Positions 22-10,773 of a stretch of DNA of 64,000 nt are shown here, in pieces. This stretch comes from Dehalococcoidia bacterium (lineage in GTDB: Bacteria > Chloroflexota > Dehalococcoidia > UBA2979): positions 920,605 to 984,604 of the forward strand of contig OZ241365.1 of NCBI GenBank assembly GCA_965200555.1. The letters are read 5' to 3'. The notes beneath the pieces are model-generated. The model worked only from the letters and a program-made list of their open reading frames with translations, was not told the DNA's origin and did not search any database. A program made the translations under genes and the position numbers. Numbering within the stretch: the first letter of the stretch is position 1; each line of letters begins with the position of its first letter.

Positions 22-2577
22 TCACGAGGCGGCGAACGCGCGGCAGCGGATCGCCCGCTCGAGGTCGTCGTTGGCCTCGCGCAGCGAGCGCCGCAGCAGC
101 GGCAGCCGCTCGCCGAGCTCGCCGAGCAGCGCCAGCGAGCGGTCGAGCACGCGCTGCTCGACGCGGCCGTGGGGGAAGAGGCTGGCGAACCACGCGCGCG
201 TGAACTCGTTCTCGCGCCCGGCGAAGACCTCGGGCGCGCGCTCGAAGAACTCCATCGTCCAGGGTTCCAGCAGCCCGCGCTGGACGTGCCAGTGGAAGCC
301 GGACATCGCGGCGGCGGTGAGGTGCAGCGAGCCGTAGCCCTCCTCGCGGAAGCGCCGCCACGCCTCGGCCTTCACGGCGGCGTCGGGGACGGACGCCGCG
401 CAGCGCAGGGCGGCGCGCTGGCCGCGGTCCGAGGGGTCGCGCGCGCGCTCCGCCTCGACGCGCGCGTCCGCGCCCCCGGCGCCGTGCGCGACCGCGCGCG
501 CGGCGATCTCCCAGCGCATGTCCTGGTCCACCGTCAGCCCCGGCACGTCCAGTTCGCCGTCGGCGAGCGCCATCGCGCGCGCGAGGTCGCCGGGCGCGAT
601 CGCGAGGCCGATCAGCGCGCGCGCCCAGATGATGCGCGCGTCGGCGGCGGAGTCGTCCGCGGGCAGCGCGTTCAGCGCCTCCCACGCCACCTCCGAGAAG
701 CGGTGCGCCTCCTCCTCGCGGCGGTCGTCGGGCACGAAGCGCGCGATCGCCGTCGTGGCGGTGGCGAGCACCGTCTCGATCAGCTCGATGTCGGCCTCCG
801 CCGTCACCTTCGAGGCGGCCAGCGGCAGGTAGTCGGTCGAGCGCAGCTGGCGGTCGCGCACCATGTTCCACAGCGCCTGCCAGATCAGCTGCCGCAGCAG
901 CGGGTCCGCGATGCGCTCGAGGCGCTCCCGCACGTAGCCGAGCGAACGCTCGTCGAGCGCCACCTTGGCGAAGGCGTGGTCGTGCAGGTTCGGCATCACC
1001 AGCAGCGGCTCGGGCAGGCCGGCCGCCGCGGGCACATCGGTGCGCGGCCCGTCGATCGAGACGGCGAGGGCCTCGGCTTCGGCGCGCCCGCCGTCCTCGG
1101 TCACGAGCGCGACGTCGAGGCGGTGGGGGCGCAGCGTGGGGTGCTCCTCGGGCGCGGTCTGATCGATGGCGAGGGCGGCGATGCGGCCGTCCTCGGCGCG
1201 CCAGTCGGCGGCGACGGTGTTGAGCGAGGCGGTCTCGAGCCAGAGCGCGGCCCACTCGCGCAGGTCGCGCCCGGCGCCCTCGCCGATGGCGTCGAGGAAC
1301 TCGGCGAGGGTGGTGTTGCCGAAGGCGTGGCGGCGGAAGTAGCGGCGCATCCCGTCGCGGAAGGCGTCCGCGCCGACGGCGGCGACGAGCTGCTTGAGCA
1401 CCGCCGCGCCCTTGCCGTAGGTGATGCCGTCGAAGTTGAGGAAGGTGGCGTCGGTGTCCGGCACCTGCCCGGCGATGGGGTGCGTCGTCGGCAGCTGGTC
1501 CTGGCGGTAGGCCCACGCCTTCATGCCGGAGTTGAAGGCCAGCCACGCCGAGCCGAAGCGCGTCGCCTCGGCCATCGCGAGGTAGGCCATGTAGGTGGCG
1601 AAGCTCTCGTTCAGCCAGAGGTCGTTCCACCAGCGCATCGTCACGAGGTCGCCGAACCACATGTGCGCCATCTCGTGGAGGATGACCTCGGCGCGTCCGA
1701 GCCGCTGGTTGTCGGTCGGGGGGTCGCGGAAGACCATGCGCTCCGAGTGCGTGATCGCGCCGACGTTCTCCATCGCCCCGAAGTTGAACTCCGGCACGAA
1801 GACCTGGTCGTACTTGCCGAAGGGGTAGGGGTAGCCGAAGAACTCCGCGTAGAAGTCGAGCCCCTGCTTCGTCACCTCGAACAGCTCGCCGGCGTCGATG
1901 TGGGGCGCCAGCGACTCGCGGCAGAAGAAACCGAGCGGCACGCCGCGGTGGTCGCGCCGGAAGCCGCGGTAGGGGCCGGCGAGGAGCGCGAAGAGGTAGG
2001 TGGAGAACGGCGCGGTGCGCGCGAAGCGCCGCCGCACCCGCCCGTCCGCCAGCGGCGCGCGCTCCACCTCGGCGGAGTTGGCGATCAGCACCCATTCGGC
2101 GGGCGCGTCCACGGTCAGCTCGTAGGTCGCCTTGAGGTCGGGCTGGTCGAAGCAGGGGAAGAGGCGGTGGGCGTTGTAGGGCTCGAAGTTGGTGTAGAGG
2201 TACTCGGCGCCGTCCTCGGGGTCGACGAACTGGTGGAAGCCGTCGCCGGTGTGGTCGTAGTCGTGCTCCCAGGCGACGCGCACCTCGTTGCGCGCGGCCA
2301 GCGCCGCGGCCGGCAGCGTCAGCCGGTACGGCCCCGGCGAGGGCTCGACGGCCACGCCGTTGACCTCGAGGCGCTCGACGCCGCCGCCGCGGTGGTCGAG
2401 GTGGAGGTCGCCCTCGCCCGCGAGGCCGAAGCGGATCGCGGCCTCGCCGCGGTAGCGTTCCGCGCCGGGGACGAGGTCGAGCCGCAGTTCGTAGGAGACG
2501 CCGCCGACGCGGGCGGCGCGCGTGGCGGCCTCCTCCTGCGTCAGCACGTCGCGCACGGCGTCGGCCCCGGTCGTCAT
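22..2577 (-). CDS. pepN: Aminopeptidase N (M1 family metallopeptidase)
   Basis: Within the ORF 22..4620 the real protein begins at MTTGADAV (start codon complement at 2575-2577). It carries the GAMEN exopeptidase motif and the HEMAHMWFGD...E zinc-binding HEXXH motif. The 851-aa length is typical of PepN, and the stop TGA (complement) sits at 22-24. The upstream 680 aa of the ORF is Arg-rich artefact. Confidence 0.9.
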   Translation of the reverse strand: MTTGADAVRDVLTQEEAATRAARVGGVSYELRLDLVPGAERYRGEAAIRFGLAGEGDLHLDHRGGGVERLEVNGVAVEPSPGPYRLTLPAAALAARNEVRVAWEHDYDHTGDGFHQFVDPEDGAEYLYTNFEPYNAHRLFPCFDQPDLKATYELTVDAPAEWVLIANSAEVERAPLADGRVRRRFARTAPFSTYLFALLAGPYRGFRRDHRGVPLGFFCRESLAPHIDAGELFEVTKQGLDFYAEFFGYPYPFGKYDQVFVPEFNFGAMENVGAITHSERMVFRDPPTDNQRLGRAEVILHEMAHMWFGDLVTMRWWNDLWLNESFATYMAYLAMAEATRFGSAWLAFNSGMKAWAYRQDQLPTTHPIAGQVPDTDATFLNFDGITYGKGAAVLKQLVAAVGADAFRDGMRRYFRRHAFGNTTLAEFLDAIGEGAGRDLREWAALWLETASLNTVAADWRAEDGRIAALAIDQTAPEEHPTLRPHRLDVALVTEDGGRAEAEALAVSIDGPRTDVPAAAGLPEPLLVMPNLHDHAFAKVALDERSLGYVRERLERIADPLLRQLIWQALWNMVRDRQLRSTDYLPLAASKVTAEADIELIETVLATATTAIARFVPDDRREEEAHRFSEVAWEALNALPADDSAADARIIWARALIGLAIAPGDLARAMALADGELDVPGLTVDQDMRWEIAARAVAHGAGGADARVEAERARDPSDRGQRAALRCAASVPDAAVKAEAWRRFREEGYGSLHLTAAAMSGFHWHVQRGLLEPWTMEFFERAPEVFAGRENEFTRAWFASLFPHGRVEQRVLDRSLALLGELGERLPLLRRSLREANDDLERAIRCRAFAAS

Positions 2578-2775
2578 CGGCGTCTCCCGGCGTTGGCGCG
2601 GCGGCGGGCGGCGCGCCGCCCGCCGCTCCGAGTATAGCGCGCCGCCCGGCACGCTCAGCCCCCTCGGGCCGAACAGGATCGGGAGATCGCGATCGCCGGC
2701 GGCCCGCGCCGCGCCGCGTCCGCCGCCGCGCGCCGCCGTGCCAGCCTGCGCGACGCATCGAGGGGGCGCGAGGCG

Positions 2776-3687
2776 ATGGCCGAGGCGGGCGGCGGCGGGA
2801 ACGGCGATCCCGCGCCGTGGCTCGAGGGGCACGCCGGACGGCTGGGCGAGGCGCTCGGCCTCGACATCGAGATCACGGGGCGCGAGGCGGCCTGCCTGAT
2901 CGGCCGCGAGGCCGGCAGCGGCCGCGACGTGCTCGTCGGGGGCCGGCCGGGACCCACCGGCGACGCCGGCCTCGGCGGGCTGCTCGCCCGCGCCGCCGCC
3001 CTCGGCGCGCGCATCGTGGTGTGGGTCGGCGGCGAGGTGCGCGACGAGCACCGCGAGGCGATCCGCTGGCTCAACGCCTCGGACGCCGTCGCCTTCTTCG
3101 CCGTCGAGGCAACGGCGCCTCGCGGCGGCGGCCCGCTCCCGCGCCTCCGCGTGGCGGCGGGGCCCGCCCCGCCCGCGCGGGTCAAGGGCCGGCGGCCGCC
3201 GCCCGCGACCGCCGAGGGGAAGGCGTACCAAGCGTTCTACGGCGACCTGGTCGACCTGCTCAGGGAACGGCGCTTCACCGAGGCGCGCCGGAGCAGCGTC
3301 GGCACGGCCCCGTCGAAGACGTTCGGGTGGGGCATGAGGGGCTGCGCGGTGCGGATGGCGTTCGGGGAGGGCGAGTTCCGCGTCCAGCTCGTCGTCGAGG
3401 GCGGCACGAAGCAGCAGAACAAGGCGGTCTTCGACCGCCTGCACGCCGAGCGCGAGGCTATCGAGGCCGCACTGGGCGAGGCGCCCGCGTGGCTCCGCCT
3501 CGATCGCCTCAAGACGTCGCGCCTCGAATTCCGCAGGCCGGGATCGGTCGCGGCCTCCTCCGCCGCGGAGCTCGGCGAGCTGAAGCGCTGGGCCGCCGAC
3601 CTGCTGCCGCTCCTGCGCGACGTGTTCGGCCCGCGCGTCGCCGCGCTCAACCTCGACGCGCTGACCGCCGAGGCGCGCGAGGCGTGA
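2776..3687 (+). CDS. NucS-like PD-(D/E)XK nuclease-fold / DUF4268-like protein, degenerate paralog (catalytic motif lost)
   Basis: 303 aa and clearly paralogous to the next gene (WLxxHAxxLGxALGLxIE..., IVVW..., EHRxAIxWLN, AVAFFAVE, and the C-terminal ...RWAxDLLPxxRDxFxPRxAALxLDALxAEA). The segment corresponding to [32 protein letters not shown] is replaced here by LIGREAGSGRDVLVGGRPGPTGDAGLGGLL. Confidence 0.55.
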   Translation: MAEAGGGGNGDPAPWLEGHAGRLGEALGLDIEITGREAACLIGREAGSGRDVLVGGRPGPTGDAGLGGLLARAAALGARIVVWVGGEVRDEHREAIRWLNASDAVAFFAVEATAPRGGGPLPRLRVAAGPAPPARVKGRRPPPATAEGKAYQAFYGDLVDLLRERRFTEARRSSVGTAPSKTFGWGMRGCAVRMAFGEGEFRVQLVVEGGTKQQNKAVFDRLHAEREAIEAALGEAPAWLRLDRLKTSRLEFRRPGSVAASSAAELGELKRWAADLLPLLRDVFGPRVAALNLDALTAEAREA

Positions 3688-3750
3688 CCGCCGCCGCGCC
3701 GCCGCAACGCGGGGGCGTGCTACGCTGCGGCGCGAGGGGGCAAGCGGGCG

Positions 3751-4740
3751 ATGGCCGAGCTGGGCAGCATCACGAACGTGGACCCGCGCACCGTATGGCC
3801 GAACGAGGCCGGCGACTTCACGCCGTGGCTCGCGGAGCACGCCGACCTGCTCGGCGCGGCGCTGGGACTGGAAATCGAGACGGAGCAGCGCGAGGCCGCG
3901 GTCGGCGCGTTCAGCCTCGACCTGCTCGGCAGGGAGGTCGGCAGCGATCGCGTCGTGATCGTCGAGAACCAGCTGGAGCGCACCGATCACGGCCACCTCG
4001 GCCAGCTGCTCGCCTACGCCGCCGGCCTCGACGCGAAGATCGTGGTCTGGATCAGTCCCGACGTGCGCGAAGAGCACCGCGACGCCATCCACTGGCTCAA
4101 CGAGCAGACCACCGACGCGGTGGCCTTCTTCGCCGTCGAACTGGAGGTGTGGCGGATCGGGGAATCGCTGCCCGCTCCGCGCTTCAACGTGGTGGCAAGG
4201 CCGAGCGGATTCCAGCGGACGATCATACAGAGGACATCTGCCGCACCAAGCGAACGCGGCATCGCCTACCAGCAGTTTTTCCGTGACCTTGTGGGGCGGT
4301 TGCACGCACAACATCCCGGCTTTGCCCGCACTAATCTCGATCTGATCCGCTATGACAACTGGACAAGCTTTGGTGCGGGCCAATCCGGGTTCTCGATCGA
4401 GGCAGCGTTCGCACGCGATCGGTTCCGCGTCGATCTCTACATTTCCAATATGGGTACCGAACGGACCAGTGCAGCCTTCAACAGCCTGCATGGAAGCCGC
4501 GAAGCCGTAGAAGAAGAACTCGGCATGGCATTGGAATGGGAGCGGCTCCCGCGGACGTTCCGGGTAGCGGCATACCGGGATGGCGGTATCGACTCTGCCG
4601 AGGCCGTACTCGAAGCGCACAAGCGCTGGGCCGTCGACCTGCTCCCCCGCTTCCGCGACGCCTTCCAGCCGCGCATCGCCGCGCTCGACCTCGACGCGCT
4701 CGCCGCCGAGGCGTTCGAGTACGAGGAGGACGACGCATGA
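3751..4740 (+). CDS. NucS/EndoMS-like PD-(D/E)XK nuclease domain protein with DUF4268-type C-terminal region
   Basis: 329 aa. The N-terminal region has the LDLL...[25 protein letters not shown] pattern, matching the RecB-like nuclease core of NucS (DLL...VEIKR...QLTRYL) with ENQ in place of EIK. A GAGGGGG RBS lies 10 nt upstream. The stop TGA overlaps the hemB ATG (ATGA at 4737-4740). Family assignment (DUF4268) is from memory of Pfam and unverified. Confidence 0.6.
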
Positions 4741-5771
4741 CCATCGCCCCCACCGCTCCCGCGCCCACCGCCGCAGCCGCGCCGTTCGCGCGCACGAGGC
4801 GGATGCGGGCGAGCGAGGCGCTGCGCGGGCTGGCGCGGGAGACGCGGCTCGACCCCTCGGCGTTCGTGTACCCGCTGTTCGCCGTCGAGGGGCGCGGGGT
4901 GCGCGAGCCGATCGCGTCGATGCCGGGGCAGCGCCGGCTCTCGACCGACATGCTCGCGGACGAGGCGCGCGAGCTGCGCGAGCTGGGCGTGCGCGCGGTG
5001 CTGCTGTTCGGCGTGCCCGGCCGCAAGGACGCCGAGGGCAGCGGCGCGTGGGCGGCGGACGGCATCGCGCAGCGGGCGGCCTCGGCGCTGCGCGACGCCG
5101 ACCCGGCGCTCGCCGTGATCGCCGACGTCTGCCTCTGCGAGTACACCGACCACGGCCACTGCGGCCCCCTCGACGCGCGCGGCGAGGTCGTCAACGACGC
5201 GGCGGTCGAGCTGCTGGCGCGCACCGCCGTCTCGCTCGCCGAAGCGGGGGCCGGCATGGTGGCGCCCTCGGACATGATGGACGGGCGGGTCGGCGCCATC
5301 CGCGCCGAACTCGACGCGGCCGGCCACGCCGGGCTGCCGATCATGGCCTACAGCGCCAAGTACGCCTCGGCGTTCTACGGGCCGTTCCGCGAGGCGGCCG
5401 GCTCCGCCCCGGCGTTCGGCGACCGCCGCGGCTACCAGATGGACCCGCCGAACGTGCGCGAGGCCGTGCGCGAGGCCGCGATCGACGCCGCCGAGGGCGC
5501 CGACGCGGTGATGGTCAAGCCCGCGCTCGCCTACCTCGACGTGGTGCGCGCGGTGCGCGAATCGACCGGCCTGCCGCTGGCGGCGTACAACGTGTCGGGC
5601 GAGTACGCGATGCTGAAGGCGGCGGCGGCGCAAGGCTGGATCGAGGAGGAGCGCGCGGTGCTCGAAACGCTGACCGGCATCCGCCGCGCGGGGGCCGACG
5701 TCGTGATCACCTACCACGCCAAGGAGGCCGCGCGCTGGCTGCGCCGCGCTCCCGCCGGGGACGCCCCGTGA
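4737..5771 (+). CDS. hemB: Porphobilinogen synthase (delta-aminolevulinic acid dehydratase)
   Basis: 344 aa. Conserved HemB motifs are present ([19 protein letters not shown] metal/active-site region, [26 protein letters not shown] active-site Lys, VMVKPA). The ATG at 4737 overlaps the upstream stop. Confidence 0.92.
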
Positions 5772-6580
5772 GCGGCGGGGACGGCGCCCTCCCGCCCTTC
5801 GACGCCGGAGCGATCCGCGCCGTCGCCTTCGACGCCTACGGCACGCTCTTCGACTGGGACTTCCGCGCCTGCCTCGCGCAGGCGCTCGCCGAGCAGGGCC
5901 TCGCCGTCGAGGACCTCGACGCCGTCGCCCACAGCTTCGAGCAGGCGTGGAACAGGGTCAGCCCGTTCGCCGAACCCGGCGGCGGCGAGAAGCCCGACCG
6001 CGAGCTGCTGCTCGCCGGCGAGGCGCCCGAGTTCGTCACGACGTGGGAGATCTGGCGGCGGCAGTTCGCGTGGGTGTTCGGCGAGCAGGGCCTCGCCGGC
6101 GACGCGGGGGCGGGAGCCGACCTCTTCCGCGAGGTGCTGGGCCGCGCGCCGGCCTACCCCGACGCGCACGCGGCGGTGGACGCCCTCGCCGCGGCGGGCT
6201 ACCGGCTGGGGCTGCTGTCGAACGCCGACGAGGACTTCCTGCAGAGCGCGATCTCGCACAACCGGCTGCGCTTCTCCGTGATCCAGTCCTCGGAGTCGCT
6301 GCGCTGCTACAAGCCGCACCAGTCCACCTTCGGCGAACTCTGCCGGCGGCTCGGCTGCGAGCCGGGCGAGGTGCTGTACGTCGGCGACTCGCCGCAGGCC
6401 GACGTGCTGGGCGCGCGCCACGCCGGACTGCGCGTCGCCTGGCTGCGCCGCCGCGGCGACGGCTACGAGCTGCCCGAGGACTACCCCAGGCCCGACCGCG
6501 CCGTGGACTCGCTCGCCGCCGCCGCCGCCGTCCTCGGCGTCGGCGAGGCCGCCGGCGCCGCCGCCGGAGCGCGCTCGTGA
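5768..6580 (+). CDS. HAD-superfamily hydrolase (haloacid dehalogenase-like)
   Basis: It has the HAD motif [11 protein letters not shown], motif III K (CYKPH) and motif [16 protein letters not shown]. The GTG start at 5768 overlaps the hemB stop (GTGA), so the exact start is uncertain. Confidence 0.7.
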
Positions 6581-7899
6581 CCGCCGAGGGGCCGCGCGGG
6601 CCGGCGCGCGAGCGCTCGCGCGCGATCATGGAGCGCGCGCGCGCCGTGCTGCCGGGCGGCGTCAACTCGCCCGCCCGCGCCTACCGCGCCGTCGGCGGCG
6701 ACCCGATCGTGCTCGAACGCGGCGAGGGCGCGATCACCGTCGACGCCGACGGCAACGAGTACGCCGACTACCTCGGCTCGTTCGGGCCGCTGATCCTCGG
6801 CCACGCCCACCCCGCCGTCGTCGAGGCGGTGCGCGCCGCCGCCGCGCGCGGCGCCTCGTTCGGCGCCACCACCGAGGCCGAAGCCGAACTCGCCGAGCTC
6901 GTCGCCGACGCGCTGCCCTCGGTCGAGATGCTGCGCTTCGTCAACTCCGGCACCGAGGCCGCGATGAGCGCGCTGCGGCTCGCCCGCGCCGCCACCGGCC
7001 GCGACCTGATCGTGAAGTTCGAGGGCTGCTACCACGGCCACGCCGACGGCCTGCTCGCCGCCGCCGGCTCCGGCGTCGCCACCCTCGGGCTGCCCGACTC
7101 GCCCGGCGTGCCCGCCGCCTTCGCCGCGCAGACGATCGTCGCGCCCTACAACGACGCCGCGGCCGTCCGCGCCGTCCTCGAGGCGCGCCCGGGCGAGGTC
7201 GCCGCCGTGATCGTCGAGCCGGTGGCCGGCAACATGGGCGTCGTCGCGCCCGCGGCGGGGTTCCTCGAGGCGCTGCGCGCGCTCTGCGACGAGCACGGCG
7301 CGCTGCTCGTGTTCGACGAGGTGATCACCGGCTTCCGCCTCGGCTGGTCGGGCGCGCAGGGCCGCTTCGGCGTGCTGCCGGACCTCACCGCGCTCGGCAA
7401 GGTGATCGGCGGCGGCCTGCCGGTGGGGGCCTACGGCGGGCCGCGCGCGCTGCTGGAGCGGATGGCGCCGGCCGGCGACGTCTACCAGGCGGGCACGCTC
7501 TCCGGCAACCCGCTGGCGACCGCCGCCGGCCTCGCCACGCTGCGCGTGCTGCGCGCCGCCGAGACCGCCTACGAGCGCCTCGACGCCCTCGCCGCGCGCC
7601 TCGCCGGGGGCGTCGCGGCGGCGGCGGCGGACGCCGGCCTGCCCCTCGCCGTCGCCCGCGAGGGCTCGATGCTGACCCCCTTCTTCCGCGAATCGCCCCC
7701 GCGCGACTACGCCGAGGCCGCCGCGAGCGACACCGCGCGCTTCGCCCGCTTCCACCGCGCCATGCTCGACCGCGGCGTCCTGCTCCCGCCCTCGCAGTTC
7801 GAGGCGTGGTTCGTCTCCCTCGCCCACGACGAGGCGACGATCGACCGCACCGCCGCCGCCGCCCGCGACGCCCTCGCCGCGCTCGCGCGCGACGGGTAG
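6577..7899 (+). CDS. hemL: Glutamate-1-semialdehyde 2,1-aminomutase
   Basis: Strong HemL identity: LPGGVNSPARAY, FVNSGTEA, DEVITGFR, and the TALGKVIGGG PLP-binding lysine. The GTG at 6577 overlaps the HAD stop; an alternative ATG lies at 6628. Confidence 0.9.
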   Translation: MTAEGPRGPARERSRAIMERARAVLPGGVNSPARAYRAVGGDPIVLERGEGAITVDADGNEYADYLGSFGPLILGHAHPAVVEAVRAAAARGASFGATTEAEAELAELVADALPSVEMLRFVNSGTEAAMSALRLARAATGRDLIVKFEGCYHGHADGLLAAAGSGVATLGLPDSPGVPAAFAAQTIVAPYNDAAAVRAVLEARPGEVAAVIVEPVAGNMGVVAPAAGFLEALRALCDEHGALLVFDEVITGFRLGWSGAQGRFGVLPDLTALGKVIGGGLPVGAYGGPRALLERMAPAGDVYQAGTLSGNPLATAAGLATLRVLRAAETAYERLDALAARLAGGVAAAAADAGLPLAVAREGSMLTPFFRESPPRDYAEAAASDTARFARFHRAMLDRGVLLPPSQFEAWFVSLAHDEATIDRTAAAARDALAALARDG

Positions 7900-7950
7900 C
7901 CGCGCCCCTACGCCCGAGGCCGGCGATTGCCCCTCGCGGCATCGCGCCGG

Positions 7951-7997
7951 TATACTCGCGGCGAAGCGGTGCGCTCAACCGCGCGCGCGGTTGAGCG
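7951..7997 (+). promoter_or_regulatory. Putative dnaN promoter -10 (TATACT 7951-7956, within GCCGGTATACTCGCGG) followed by a perfect 26-nt palindrome (7972-7997, CGCTCAACCGCGC|GCGCGGTTGAGCG) in the 5' leader
   Basis: Read directly from the sequence. A TTGCCC -35-like hexamer sits 18 nt upstream. The palindrome lies between the -10 and the GTG start at 8021. Confidence 0.4.
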
Positions 7998-8020
7998 ATT
8001 GGGCCGGCGGGGGGCCGACC

Positions 8021-9310
8021 GTGCGCCTGAACGTACAGCAGGAAGACCTCCACCGCGGCCTCCGCGCCGTCTCGCGCGCCGTGCCCGCACGCAGCACCCT
8101 CCCGATCACGAGCAACATCCTGATCGAGGCCGGCAACGACGACGACGGCAGGGGCAGCCTCAAGCTCTCCGCCACCGACGCCGAGACCATCGCCATCACC
8201 TACACCGTGGGCGCCGAGGTCGAGGAGGACGGGGCGATCACGCTGCCCTCGCGCCTGCTCTCCGACTTCGTCGCCACGCTGCCCCCCGAACCCATCGAAC
8301 TCTCGCTCGCCGAGCGCTCGCGCCAGGTCAGCCTCGTCTGCGCCCGCAACGAGGCCTCGATCGGCGGCATGGCCGCCGAGGACTTCCCGCCGATCCCCCC
8401 CGTCGAGGACGGCGACACGATCCTGCTCGACCCGGGGGCGCTGCGGCGCTCCATCGATTACGTCGCCTTCGCCGCCGCCACCGACGACTCGCGGCCCGTC
8501 CTCACCGGCGTGCACTTCGGCATCCGCGAGGGCGCGCTCAAGCTGGCCGCCGCCGACGGCTTCCGCCTCGCCGTCCACACCGTCGCGCTGTCCGGCGAGC
8601 CTCCCGAACGCGAAGCGGTCGTGCCCGCCCGCGCTCTCACCGAGCTCGCCCGCCTGCTCGGCGAACGGCGCCTGCACGCCATCGAAGAGACGCGGCGGGC
8701 GGCCGACGCGGCCGAGGCCAGCGGAACGGACGGGGAGGCCCCCGACAACCTCAGGAAACAGGCCGACGAGCTGGACGCGACCCGCAGCGGCGAGGGCGGG
8801 GAGGACGTCCGCATGACGTTCAACGCCGCGTCCACGCAGGTGCTGTTCGACCTCGGCCACGCCACGCTCAGCGCCCAGCTGGTGCAGGGATCGTTCCCCA
8901 ACTACGAGCAGCTGATCCCGACCAGCCACACCACGCGCACCGAGGTCGGCCTCGGCGAGTTCACGCGCGAGACGCGCATCGCCTCGATCTTCGCGCGCGA
9001 CGGCTCCGGCATCGTGCGCCTCGTCGCCAGCCCCGGCGCCGACGGCGCGCCCGGCCAGCTCACCGTCACCGCGCGCGGCGAGCAGGGCGGCGACCAGGGC
9101 GGCAGCAACGAGGGCCTGATCGACGCGCTGGTCGAGGGCGAGGAGGCGAAGATCGCCTTCAACAGCCGCTACCTGACCGAGGTGCTCCAGGCCCTCGGCT
9201 CCGACCGCGTCACGATCGAGACCACGTCGCCCTCCAGCCCCGGCGTGCTCCGCCCCGTCGGCGACGACGACTACGTCCACGTCGTCATGCCGATGTTCGT
9301 GCAGTGGTAG
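8021..9310 (+). CDS. dnaN: DNA polymerase III beta subunit (sliding clamp)
   Basis: The N-terminus VRLNVQQEDLHRGLRAVSRAV aligns with the canonical MKFTVEREHLLKPLQQVSG. Three beta-clamp domains are present and the C-terminus ...VVMPMFVQW is typical. The track ORF starts at a TTG at 7991; I prefer the GTG at 8021. An about 45-aa acidic insert (EETRRAADAAEASGTDGEAPDNLRKQADELDATRSGEGGEDV) is present. Confidence 0.85.
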   Translation: MRLNVQQEDLHRGLRAVSRAVPARSTLPITSNILIEAGNDDDGRGSLKLSATDAETIAITYTVGAEVEEDGAITLPSRLLSDFVATLPPEPIELSLAERSRQVSLVCARNEASIGGMAAEDFPPIPPVEDGDTILLDPGALRRSIDYVAFAAATDDSRPVLTGVHFGIREGALKLAAADGFRLAVHTVALSGEPPEREAVVPARALTELARLLGERRLHAIEETRRAADAAEASGTDGEAPDNLRKQADELDATRSGEGGEDVRMTFNAASTQVLFDLGHATLSAQLVQGSFPNYEQLIPTSHTTRTEVGLGEFTRETRIASIFARDGSGIVRLVASPGADGAPGQLTVTARGEQGGDQGGSNEGLIDALVEGEEAKIAFNSRYLTEVLQALGSDRVTIETTSPSSPGVLRPVGDDDYVHVVMPMFVQW

Positions 9311-9429
9311 CGCCCGTCGCGTCCGCGCCCCGCCGGTAAGCGCCCTCGCGCCATCGGCACCCTCGGGCCGCGTCCCCACGCCTCGGCGGGATCGGGCCGC
9401 CTCGAACCGCGCTCGCGCGGCGAGGGCGG

Positions 9430-10773
9430 CTACGGCGTCGCGGCGTCCGGGCCGGGAAGCTCCGCTTCCCAGAGGATGCCGCCGGCGTCGTACTGGCCAG
9501 TGACGACGCGGACGAGGGGGTACGGGGGGAGTTCGACCGCCGTCATGCACCGCCCCCCGTGGTGCAGCCCGCCGTCGGCGAAAGCGAAGCCGGCGGTGTT
9601 GTACGGCTGCTCGCCTTCGAGGTCGTCCTCGCCGGCGGGGTAGTAGCGCAGGAAGAAGCGGCCCGCAGTGTCCGAGGCGGTGCACTCCTCCCGCGCCCAC
9701 GTCAGCGTGCGCCCGTCGAGGTACAGGCCGAAGGCCGCGTCCGCCGCCGGCTCGCCGGCCGTCGCGGCGTCCCAGCGGGCGAGCCACCCCCCGGCGTCGA
9801 GCGGGAACCCCGCGGCCCAGATCGTGCCGTCGGCGTCGTACTGGCCGGCGACGATGCGGTCGAGGCCGTAGGCGGGCGCCTCGACCGCCGTCATGCACCG
9901 CCCCCCGTGGTGCAGGCCGCCGTCGGCGAAGGCGAAGCCGGCGGTGTTGTACGGCTGCTCGCCCTCGAGGTCGTCCTCGGCGGCGGGGTAGTAGCGCACG
10001 AAGAAGCGGCCCGCGGTGTCCGAGGCGGTGCACCCCTCGCGCGCGAGGGTCAGCGTGCGCCCGTCGAGGTACACGCCGAAGGGGCCGCGCAACCTCGGTT
10101 CGCCGGACGTGGCGGCGTCCCAGCGGGCGAGCCACCCCTCGGCGGCGAGCGGGAACCCGGCGGCCCAGATCGTGCCGTCCTCGTCGTACTGGCCGGCGAC
10201 GATGCGGTCGAGGCCGTAGGCGGGCGCCTCGATCCTCATCATGCACATGTCCTCGTGGTACACGCCGTCGTCGGCGAAGCCGAAGCCGGCGGTGTTGTAC
10301 GGGTCCCCGCCTTCGAGGTCGTCCGCGTCGGCGGGGTAGTAGCGCACGAAGAAGCGGCCCGCGGTGTCCGAGGCGGAGCACTCCTCCCGCACCCAGGTCA
10401 GCGTGCGCCCGTCGAGGTAAAGGTCGAAGGGGCCGCGCAGCACCGGCCCGCCGGACGTGGCGGCGTCCCAGCGGGCGCGCCACGCCCCGGCGTTGAGCGG
10501 CGTCCCCCCGGACCCGGCGAGGCCGCCGCCGGAACCGGCAGCCGCCGTCGCGTCCGGCGTCGCCGTCGCGTCCGGCGCCGGCGCGGTCGGCGTCGCGGTG
10601 GGCGTGGGCGGGGCGGAGACGGCGGCCCCGTCCGGCAAGGGGCCTCCCGCGGGGTCGAACGGCACGACGAGCACGAAGACGGCGGCGGCCATCGCCAGCA
10701 GCACCGAAGCGGCGGCGAAGAAGTGGACGGGGCGTGCGGCCCGCAGGGCCGGCGCGACGAATGCCGACAGCAT
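9430..10773 (-). CDS. Secreted/membrane-anchored protein with three tandem ~116-aa repeats (unknown function)
   Basis: The start is MLSAFVAPALRAARPVHFFAAASVLLAMAAAVFVLVV (signal anchor), followed by a Pro/Thr/Ala-rich linker. Three repeats follow of W(L)ARWDAATSGxPxLRGPFxxYLDGRTLTxxREECxASDTAGRFFVRYYPAxxDDLEGxxPYNTAGFxFADxGxxHxxxCMxxxExPxYGLDRIVAGQYDxDGTIWAAGFPL. The upstream part of the track ORF (to 12102) is antisense artefact. Confidence 0.6.
   Translation of the reverse strand: MLSAFVAPALRAARPVHFFAAASVLLAMAAAVFVLVVPFDPAGGPLPDGAAVSAPPTPTATPTAPAPDATATPDATAAAGSGGGLAGSGGTPLNAGAWRARWDAATSGGPVLRGPFDLYLDGRTLTWVREECSASDTAGRFFVRYYPADADDLEGGDPYNTAGFGFADDGVYHEDMCMMRIEAPAYGLDRIVAGQYDEDGTIWAAGFPLAAEGWLARWDAATSGEPRLRGPFGVYLDGRTLTLAREGCTASDTAGRFFVRYYPAAEDDLEGEQPYNTAGFAFADGGLHHGGRCMTAVEAPAYGLDRIVAGQYDADGTIWAAGFPLDAGGWLARWDAATAGEPAADAAFGLYLDGRTLTWAREECTASDTAGRFFLRYYPAGEDDLEGEQPYNTAGFAFADGGLHHGGRCMTAVELPPYPLVRVVTGQYDAGGILWEAELPGPDAATP
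9470..10560. repeat. Tandem DNA repeat, period about 348 bp, three copies (encodes the protein repeats of the 9430..10773 gene)
   Basis: The same string (e.g. gtcatgcaccgccccccgtggtgcag) recurs at 9544 and 9892, with a diverged copy near 10240. Duplicated small plus-strand ORFs at 9668..9871 and 10016..10219 give near-identical peptides. Confidence 0.7.

Follow-up and report, generated by a model that had tools for sequence, protein, structure and literature searches.

A probable stand-alone nuclease of the PDC-S11/DUF4268 family and the likely relic of an older allele upstream of hemB in a Dehalococcoidia genome

In the genome of a Dehalococcoidia bacterium (assembly GCA_965200555.1), positions 920,605 to 984,604 of contig OZ241365.1 make up a stretch of 64,000 nucleotides (nt), here called the window, which contains two adjacent open reading frames (ORFs) of the DUF4268 family directly upstream of hemB. 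The downstream one, ORF-B (3751..4740, + strand, 329 aa), is an intact member of the PDC-S11/DUF4268 family, and the upstream one, ORF-A (2776..3687, + strand, 303 aa), is its catalytically dead paralog; these descriptions rest on the reading frames, the Pfam and PDC-S11 matches and the ratio of nonsynonymous to synonymous divergence (dN/dS), to which BLASTP is added in the case of ORF-A. The explanation that we favour, and consider probable, is that ORF-B is a functional, exchanged stand-alone nuclease and that ORF-A is a relic of an older allele. The locus is a lineage-specific curiosity, a member of a known candidate kind and not a new system.

A first-pass annotation of this DNA had described the two genes as a tandem pair of end-to-end paralogs carrying DUF4268, and both descriptions hold. 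ORF-A and ORF-B are 42% identical over 312 columns (BLASTP, E 5e-63), and profile search places both in DUF4268 (PF14088), with 44.7 bits for ORF-A and 50.4 bits for ORF-B against a Pfam gathering score of 27. The DUF4268 domain spans residues 152-286 of ORF-A (3229..3633, + strand; delimited by Pfam, domain-wise identity and dN/dS) and residues 174-307 of ORF-B (4270..4671, + strand; Pfam, identity, fold and base composition), in which it forms a hypervariable mosaic region. Furthermore, ORF-B matches the PDC-S11 hidden Markov model (HMM) PDLC04911 over its full length (residues 1-310 on model positions 1-313 of 318, E 8e-101), and ORF-A matches the same model over residues 13-289 (E 1.6e-35). 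Neither protein has a match in NCBIfam, and sequence and profile searches of the PDB returned no solved relative and no NucS, only the chance matches 7ms2 and 6nuk.

In a family alignment of 32 sequences, from which active-site conservation was derived, E48, D57, E72, N73, Q74, T78, D79, H80, H82, G84 and Y89 are conserved in at least 90% of the members; Q85 of the QxxxY motif is the majority residue, with K in some members of the family. The corresponding block of ORF-B lies at 3892..4017 (+ strand) and comprises E48, D57 (in FSLDLL), E72-N-Q74 (in VENQ), TDHxH and Q85xxxY89. In the AlphaFold2 (AF2) model of ORF-B, which has a predicted local distance difference test score (pLDDT) of 87.7, the conserved residues are located on strands 1-3 and the next helix of an alpha/beta core at residues ~40-150, N-terminal to DUF4268. 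The features of the PD-(D/E)XK core, namely the alpha-beta-beta-beta-alpha-beta order, an acidic residue at the start of strand 2 and the (D/E)xK position on strand 3, are all found in ORF-B. Structural comparison gave figures of 11.7 for Pyrococcus abyssi NucS, 9.6 for AspBHI, 9.4 for AF1548, 7.9 for Can2, 7.8 for FokI and 7.7 for MspJI. Because of the conserved motif residues and these structural matches, the N-terminal domain of ORF-B is predicted to be a PD-(D/E)XK nuclease of the RecB/NucS type in which Q replaces the lysine.

The first-pass annotation had called the pair NucS-like, a description that survives at the level of the fold, given the match to P. abyssi NucS, and fails at the level of the family. 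The NucS profile (PF01939) matches neither ORF-A nor ORF-B at E<=1, DUF4268 being the only family returned, and the domain order is reversed: NucS/EndoMS (PF01939; PDB 2vld) combines an N-terminal single-stranded DNA/mismatch-binding domain with a C-terminal nuclease, whereas in ORF-B the nuclease is N-terminal, the binding domain is absent and DUF4268 is found instead. The replacement of K by Q is a further difference, and the mobile, patchy distribution of the family, its carriage on plasmids and the turnover of its alleles are unlike those of a core repair gene; nor is the adjacency to dnaN seen in the window preserved in the related loci L002 and L085. A role of ORF-B as a NucS/EndoMS-type mismatch-repair endonuclease, which the fold alone could suggest, therefore appears highly improbable.

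Much closer are the parallels with defence candidates and type IV restriction enzymes. PDC-S11 is a single-gene "phage defence candidate" of PADLOC-DB v2 (Payne et al. 2024, bioRxiv 10.1101/2024.01.29.577857), from a set of 145 untested candidates nominated by their location inside BREX, DISARM or type I restriction-modification (RM) loci (10.1101/2024.01.29.577857); the other mentions of PDC-S11 found in the literature are genome surveys only. ORF-B resembles this family in its end-to-end HMM match and in being a single gene without a conserved partner, and differs from the loci that led to the nomination in that it sits in a heme-biosynthesis operon together with a dead paralog. DUF4268 itself is a recurrent accessory domain of the GmrSD type IV enzymes (PMC4619093). 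It is also present in MdgA and MdgB, modification-dependent antiphage nucleases that were obtained by functional selection and protect Escherichia coli against T4 but not against T4-GT7 (Cell Host Microbe 2025, PMC12366544). Purified MdgA degrades T4 DNA far better than unmodified T4-GT7 DNA, its E77A mutant is inactive, and MdgA homologues occur in many phyla (PMC12366544). The likeness of ORF-B to MdgA and MdgB is architectural: a predicted nuclease domain and DUF4268 are joined in a stand-alone gene. The catalytic glutamate is residue 77 in MdgA and 72 in ORF-B, an offset inside the N-terminal length variation of the family, and activity on modified DNA has been shown for MdgA only.

Like GmrSD/BrxU and MspJI/AspBHI, type IV enzymes that are stand-alone nucleases lacking a cognate methyltransferase, ORF-B has no methyltransferase beside it: its flanks consist of an aminopeptidase-like gene, ORF-A, hemB, a HAD hydrolase gene and hemL, and the same holds for the related loci. 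The nuclease domains of AspBHI and MspJI are among the top structural matches of ORF-B. The accessory domains differ, however: GmrSD contains DUF262 and DUF1524 (His-Me) domains, neither of which is found in ORF-B, and MspJI and AspBHI carry an SRA-like reader of modified cytosine that is absent from ORF-B. For ORF-B, comparison with L001 gives a dN/dS of 0.13 and comparison with L090 one of 0.32, within an overall range of 0.13-0.37, and the gene is under purifying selection. Given the lack of an adjacent methyltransferase, the intact active site and this range of dN/dS, ORF-B is, by analogy, most likely a stand-alone nuclease directed against phages or plasmids and possibly dependent on DNA modification.

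In ORF-A, the active site is gone. The strings quoted by the first-pass annotation, an LDLL core in ORF-B and GRDVLVGGRPGPTGDAGLGGLL in ORF-A, are both present, and the loss of the core from the upstream copy stands in so far as, among the conserved positions, ORF-A retains only E48, L83 and G84, so that E48 is the sole catalytic residue left. The core has not been replaced, however, but mutated and partly deleted: a 6-residue deletion takes out D57, a further 12 residues are missing at the N-terminus, E72-N-Q74 reads GGR, and G and R stand at the positions of Q85 and Y89. Tested for the catalytic acidic residues of PD-(D/E)XK enzymes, ORF-A comes out negative. Identical losses are found in P0122 and P0123, orthologs that are 94% and 82% identical to ORF-A, and therefore the inactivation is older than the divergence of these proteins. 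The degenerate ex-nuclease domain, defined by alignment, composition and dN/dS, covers codons 1-140 (2776..3195, + strand), and Gly, Ala, Arg and Pro make up 56% of the residues of this dead half, an enrichment that is to be expected from drift under GC (guanine plus cytosine) pressure. Indeed, ORF-A has the composition of its host (GC 0.777, and 0.96 at third codon positions, GC3; the window has ~75% GC).

Codon-level comparison points in the same direction. The dN/dS of ORF-A is 0.90 between the window and L001, 0.83 against L083 and 1.10 against L085, the deepest ORF-A pair compared at this level (59.5 nonsynonymous and 20.5 synonymous changes). In the comparison with L001, ORF-B has a dN/dS of 0.13 and hemB of 0.12, and in that with L085 the values are 0.21 for hemB, 0.44 for the HAD hydrolase gene and 0.39 for hemL. 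The ratio of nonsynonymous to synonymous changes, 60:20 in ORF-A, differs from the 111:115 of hemB, the HAD hydrolase gene and hemL taken together (Fisher p 7e-5) and is compatible with neutrality (p 0.71). When the two halves of ORF-A are taken separately, dN/dS is ~1.5-1.7 in the ex-nuclease half (1.74 by variant codons in up to 8 sequences) and ~0.66-0.81 in the DUF4268 half (0.74-0.81 by variant codons, again in up to 8 sequences), neither value being different from 1. Judged by purifying selection and by conservation of the frame, ORF-A does not qualify as a selected protein-coding gene. The L001 ortholog of ORF-A has suffered two separate 1-nt deletions, both in the DUF4268 half, with none in the ORF-B or hemB of the same locus; truncated members occur in the 90%-identity cluster of ORF-A; and L002 and L003 lack ORF-A altogether, yet keep the hemB-linked active gene. 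Taken together, these sequence comparisons indicate that ORF-A is quite likely a decaying fossil allele, a pseudogene in progress.

These observations bear directly on the proposal of the first-pass annotation that the active and the inactive copy act together, as a heterodimer or as regulator and enzyme. ORF-A would then be a nuclease-dead partner of ORF-B in a nickase-like or regulated enzyme, or would contribute its DUF4268 domain as an extra module for specificity, regulation or decoy. A dN/dS of 0.83-1.10, which is not distinguishable from 1 even in the DUF4268 half, the frameshifts in L001, the truncated relatives and the absence of ORF-A from L002 and L003 all argue against such a role, and AF2 modelling, resting as it does on an alignment of mostly active members, says little on whether ORF-A can fold. 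Neither is pairing a habit of the family: in a scan of species-representative genomes that yielded 80 family loci, a second copy is present in only ~4, and the pair in one of these, L078, consists of two intact genes. We consider this proposal improbable. A broader version holds that the DUF4268 domain of ORF-A has been retained to act, free of a nuclease, as a partner, a decoy or an additional specificity module of the active enzyme, that such arrangements arose repeatedly (in the clade of the window, in L021 and in L047) and that the hemB slot is a dedicated site of allele swapping that borrows the expression of an essential operon; it seems to us just as doubtful.

The loci with more than one copy are rare and heterogeneous. 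In L021 (8001-10700), the intact copy is accompanied by an ORF that consists of DUF4268 only and by a full-length copy whose active site has degenerated (IIQSR, HFGELLAC); in L047 (8001-9625), an ORF limited to DUF4268 shares a near-identical tail with the intact nuclease copy beside it; and the two paralogs of L078 (6966-8945) are both intact.

The position of ORF-B with respect to hemB had also been pointed out, as an ATGA overlap of the two genes that would place a putative nuclease in the tetrapyrrole operon. The overlap is present in the sequence (4737..4740, + strand), where the stop codon of ORF-B overlaps the start of hemB, and the linkage recurs in orthologs, within limits. Ten related loci have a family gene ahead of hemB (the window, L001, L002, L003, L083, L085 and L087-L090), and nine of them show the ATGA junction across differing alleles of ORF-B. 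In the 80 loci of the genome scan, by contrast, hemB lies within 8 kb in a single case (L003) and is missing from this distance in the remaining 79. The linkage is thus real but confined to one clade. The exception with regard to the junction is L002, where two opposite-strand genes separate the DUF4268 gene from hemB and no ATGA junction exists. These inserted genes (7027-7988, - strand; 134 and 195 aa) have no Pfam match and were found only in L002, suggesting that the slot also takes other cargo.

L002 and L003 have a complete hemA-hemC-hemD-hemB-HAD-hemL operon, with the DUF4268 gene placed after cobA/hemD and before hemB. The hemA, hemC, cobA/hemD, sirC-like and MerR-like genes of these loci (L002 879-6001, L003 2882-7980) have no match in the 64-kb window, and therefore the heme operon was split in the lineage of the window, where the DUF4268 gene stayed with hemB.

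Within this conserved arrangement, the ORF-B alleles and hemB have not diverged in step. Relative to the window (100% for both genes, with the aminopeptidase-like gene upstream), L001 is 97.9% identical in ORF-B and 99.4% in hemB, L083 59.4% and 97.7%, and L085, which has ScpB/DUF503 genes upstream, 68.8% and 92.2%. The two loci with the full hem operon upstream show 77.7% and 82.2% (L002) and 58.3% and 83% (L003, from a Dehalococcoidia bacterium, the hemB value coming from tblastn only); L087-L090 are short contigs of the same arrangement that were not part of this comparison. Between the window and L083, synonymous divergence (dS) is 0.69 in ORF-B as against 0.03 in hemB and in ORF-A. The alleles themselves are mosaics. 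In that of L083, nearly all of the first ~40 and the last ~40 residues are those of the window ORF-B and the middle is different; in L087, only the DUF4268 core has been replaced, being saturated at synonymous sites relative to the window with a dS of ~0.15 in the flanks; and P0010, P0019 and P0020 are 90-100% identical to ORF-B in the N-terminal domain and the tail, with only 32-51% identity in the DUF4268 core. The C-terminal acidic tail of ORF-B also differs between alleles. Throughout the family, the DUF4268 core thus behaves like a cassette that can be exchanged.

The composition of ORF-B is foreign to the host: GC is 0.66, with a dip to 0.62 in DUF4268, and GC3 is 0.73 in the 3' half of the gene. 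The same is true of the slot in general, ORF-B-type genes having a GC of 0.61-0.66 in loci of 0.73-0.77. From the discordant identities, the mosaic alleles and the foreign GC, it follows that the slot is probably a clade-specific hotspot for foreign alleles that recombine via the conserved ends of the gene. The coupling to hemB would then be preserved as a by-product of allele exchange.

An alternative explanation of the conserved position is that the protein does housekeeping work in tetrapyrrole synthesis or in the expression of the hemB-hemL genes. The gene does occur upstream of hemB in all 10 related loci, over a range of hemB identity from ~82% to 99%, and the ATGA junction of nine of them survives both the replacement of alleles and the rearrangement of the upstream flank. 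The linkage does not extend to the 79 loci from other lineages, however, the alleles are only 54-78% identical where hemB is 82-98% identical, their GC is foreign, L002 tolerates two opposite-strand genes inserted before hemB, and the family is found on plasmids and in a provirus as well. We consider such a role very unlikely, and the functional tie to tetrapyrrole synthesis falls with it, given the clade-limited linkage, the foreign composition and the exchange of alleles between near-identical genomes. A functional link of the family as a whole to heme synthesis was discarded on the single hemB-linked locus of the genome scan.

The mosaic structure invites another possibility, that ORF-A is a silent cassette storing a DUF4268 variant for transfer by recombination into the expressed copy, ORF-B, as happens in antigenic variation. 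The mosaic cores between N-terminal domains and tails that are 95-100% identical in P0019, P0010 and P0020, the conserved segments that flank the core in both ORF-A and ORF-B, and the near-identical tails of the DUF4268-only ORF and its full-length neighbour in L047 are all compatible with this scheme. Nevertheless, no ORF-B allele of a related genome has an ORF-A-type core (the best core identity is 45-48%), the tract replaced in L083 also covers the nuclease core, and the foreign GC of the incoming alleles points to import from outside and not to copying of the GC-rich ORF-A, which moreover evolves neutrally. A silent cassette is accordingly hard to credit. Among the five alleles compared with ORF-A (those of the window, L002, L003, L083 and L085), identity is 41-47%, the L003 type being closest at 47% and the rest at 41-44%. 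A recent tandem duplication in situ was rejected, both on this uniformly low identity and on the host-like composition of ORF-A as opposed to the foreign one of ORF-B.

We therefore return to the explanation by allele exchange and propose the following scheme. ORF-B would be a functional, horizontally exchanged stand-alone PDC-S11/DUF4268 nuclease, with D57 and E72-x-Q74 as its catalytic residues, with a QxxxY helix and with DUF4268 as a variable module, presumably for target recognition, that sets the target range. It would most likely serve as a type-IV-like restriction enzyme that, without a partner methyltransferase, cuts invading, possibly modified, DNA. In the Chloroflexota-like clade, the gene would occupy a fixed slot directly upstream of hemB and be co-transcribed with hemB, the HAD hydrolase gene and hemL, to which it is chained by successive 4-nt overlaps. 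New alleles would enter by homologous recombination anchored at the gene's conserved 5' and 3' termini (and in hemB), which would swap the middle of the gene and leave the ATGA junction intact. ORF-A would be what remains of an older allele, nearest to the L003 type, that came to lie upstream; with its active site gone, its sequence would now be drifting neutrally under the GC pressure of the host. It would not be a partner subunit. We infer DNA cleavage, the anti-phage role, modification dependence, co-transcription and this order of events from the comparisons given above.

The wider distribution of the family fits a mobile gene in several respects. More than 1,291 homologues are present in the protein database, mostly of ~330 aa and named just "DUF4268 domain-containing protein". 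The scan of species-representative genomes found family members in Chloroflexota, Bacillota, Acidobacteriota, Planctomycetota, Pseudomonadota and Actinomycetota and in the archaea Methanoperedens and Halobacteriota, among others, and the family is carried by 67 plasmids and one Archaeoglobus provirus. The 140 immediate neighbours, drawn from 72 loci, include no recurrent partner: the largest neighbour cluster comprises 5 members, which come from related Dehalococcoidia, and the most frequent neighbour family is another PDC-S11 copy, in 3 cases. Occasional neighbours are R and S subunits of type I RM systems, a type IIG enzyme, DISARM DrmA/DrmD, PIN toxins and IS21, and many others are housekeeping genes. 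On the Rhodococcus plasmid pROB02, the family gene lies ~4 kb from genes for a NERD protein and a helicase-related protein.

Several observations count against the explanation that we favour. With respect to ORF-B, the lysine of the canonical ExK is Q, although an ExQ active site has a precedent in BglII; the DUF4268 domain has a type III secretion system (T3SS)-chaperone/YbjN/YktB-like fold, which matches chaperone-like proteins and not known readers of DNA or modified bases; and defence genes are only occasional among the neighbours of the family. With respect to ORF-A, the frame is open over its full length in the window, L083/L084 and L085, and over the covered 3' part in L087-L090; a Shine-Dalgarno motif and a start codon are kept; the indels relative to L083 and L085 are in-frame; and the DUF4268 half has accumulated 3.9-fold fewer nonsynonymous changes than the N-terminal half (p 4e-6), so that a weak constraint on this domain may exist. 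The intact frame is weak evidence either way because open frames persist by default in DNA of 78% GC. Conservation of the C-terminal domain relative to P0123 was considered as a sign of purifying selection and rejected, synonymous divergence also being lower there and dN/dS not distinguishable from 1. That ORF-A has retained some non-catalytic function seems to us rather unlikely.

For PDC-S11, these results provide a structural reading compatible with defence, that of a NucS-like PD-(D/E)XK core of the ExQ variant combined with a hypervariable, recombining DUF4268. Such a pattern, in which the catalytic domain is conserved, the DUF4268 core mosaic and the GC foreign, and in which alleles are replaced between near-identical genomes, is what an arms race would be expected to produce in a specificity domain. 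It lends support to the published proposal that DUF4268 serves to recognise the substrate. Furthermore, it appears that a defence-type gene can lodge stably in a housekeeping operon, translationally coupled to an essential gene. For genome scans, the locus calls for caution, in that an "active plus inactive" pair of paralogs in a GC-rich genome may be a slowly decaying fossil with an open frame. Existing views are not overturned by these observations.

The left edge of the locus is formed by an aminopeptidase-N-like gene (22..2577, - strand; from ORF and translation) that is divergent from ORF-A and encodes 851 aa if it starts at MTTGADAV; the label rests on the motif HEMAHMWFGD in its translation, which we take to be of the kind found in zinc aminopeptidases. 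The intergenic region between this gene and ORF-A (2578..2775), which contains a Shine-Dalgarno-like GAGGGGG at 2760-2766, is presumed from the sequence to be the promoter region for ORF-A, ORF-B, hemB, the HAD hydrolase gene and hemL. A promoter and terminator scan of 2400-9500 found no sigma-70 consensus match in this region, such a scan being uninformative in a 75% GC genome. ORF-A and ORF-B are separated by a spacer of 63 nt (3688..3750) with the same GAGGGGG motif at 3734-3740, and the two genes also have an identical ATGGCCGAG start context.

Downstream of ORF-B follow hemB (porphobilinogen synthase, ALAD; 4737..5771, + strand; Pfam PF00490, E 4e-142), the HAD hydrolase gene (5768-6580, + strand) and hemL (6577-7899, + strand), the latter two each beginning with a 4-nt overlap with the preceding gene. 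A HAD-family hydrolase is kept between hemB and hemL throughout the clade (window 4737-7899, L001, L002, L003 and L085). Immediately 3' of hemL, within 7927-9310, lies dnaN, with the sole sigma-70-like match of the scanned region just ahead of it (7927-7956). The adjacency of hemL and dnaN is also seen in L001, has a partial match farther downstream in L003 and is absent in L002 and L085.

No Rfam family reached its gathering threshold anywhere in the window. Because of the GC content of ~75-80%, several spurious long ORFs cover real genes (22-4620, - strand, 1,532 aa; 169-2637, + strand, 822 aa; 2817-4286, + strand, 489 aa), and an open frame alone is therefore no evidence of a gene here. The long minus-strand ORF 3' of dnaN, whose counterpart gene in L001 (6838-8155, - strand) has no Pfam match, contains a 348-nt tandem repeat (9477-10500; 2.9 copies, 88% matches) that would encode repeats of 116 aa.

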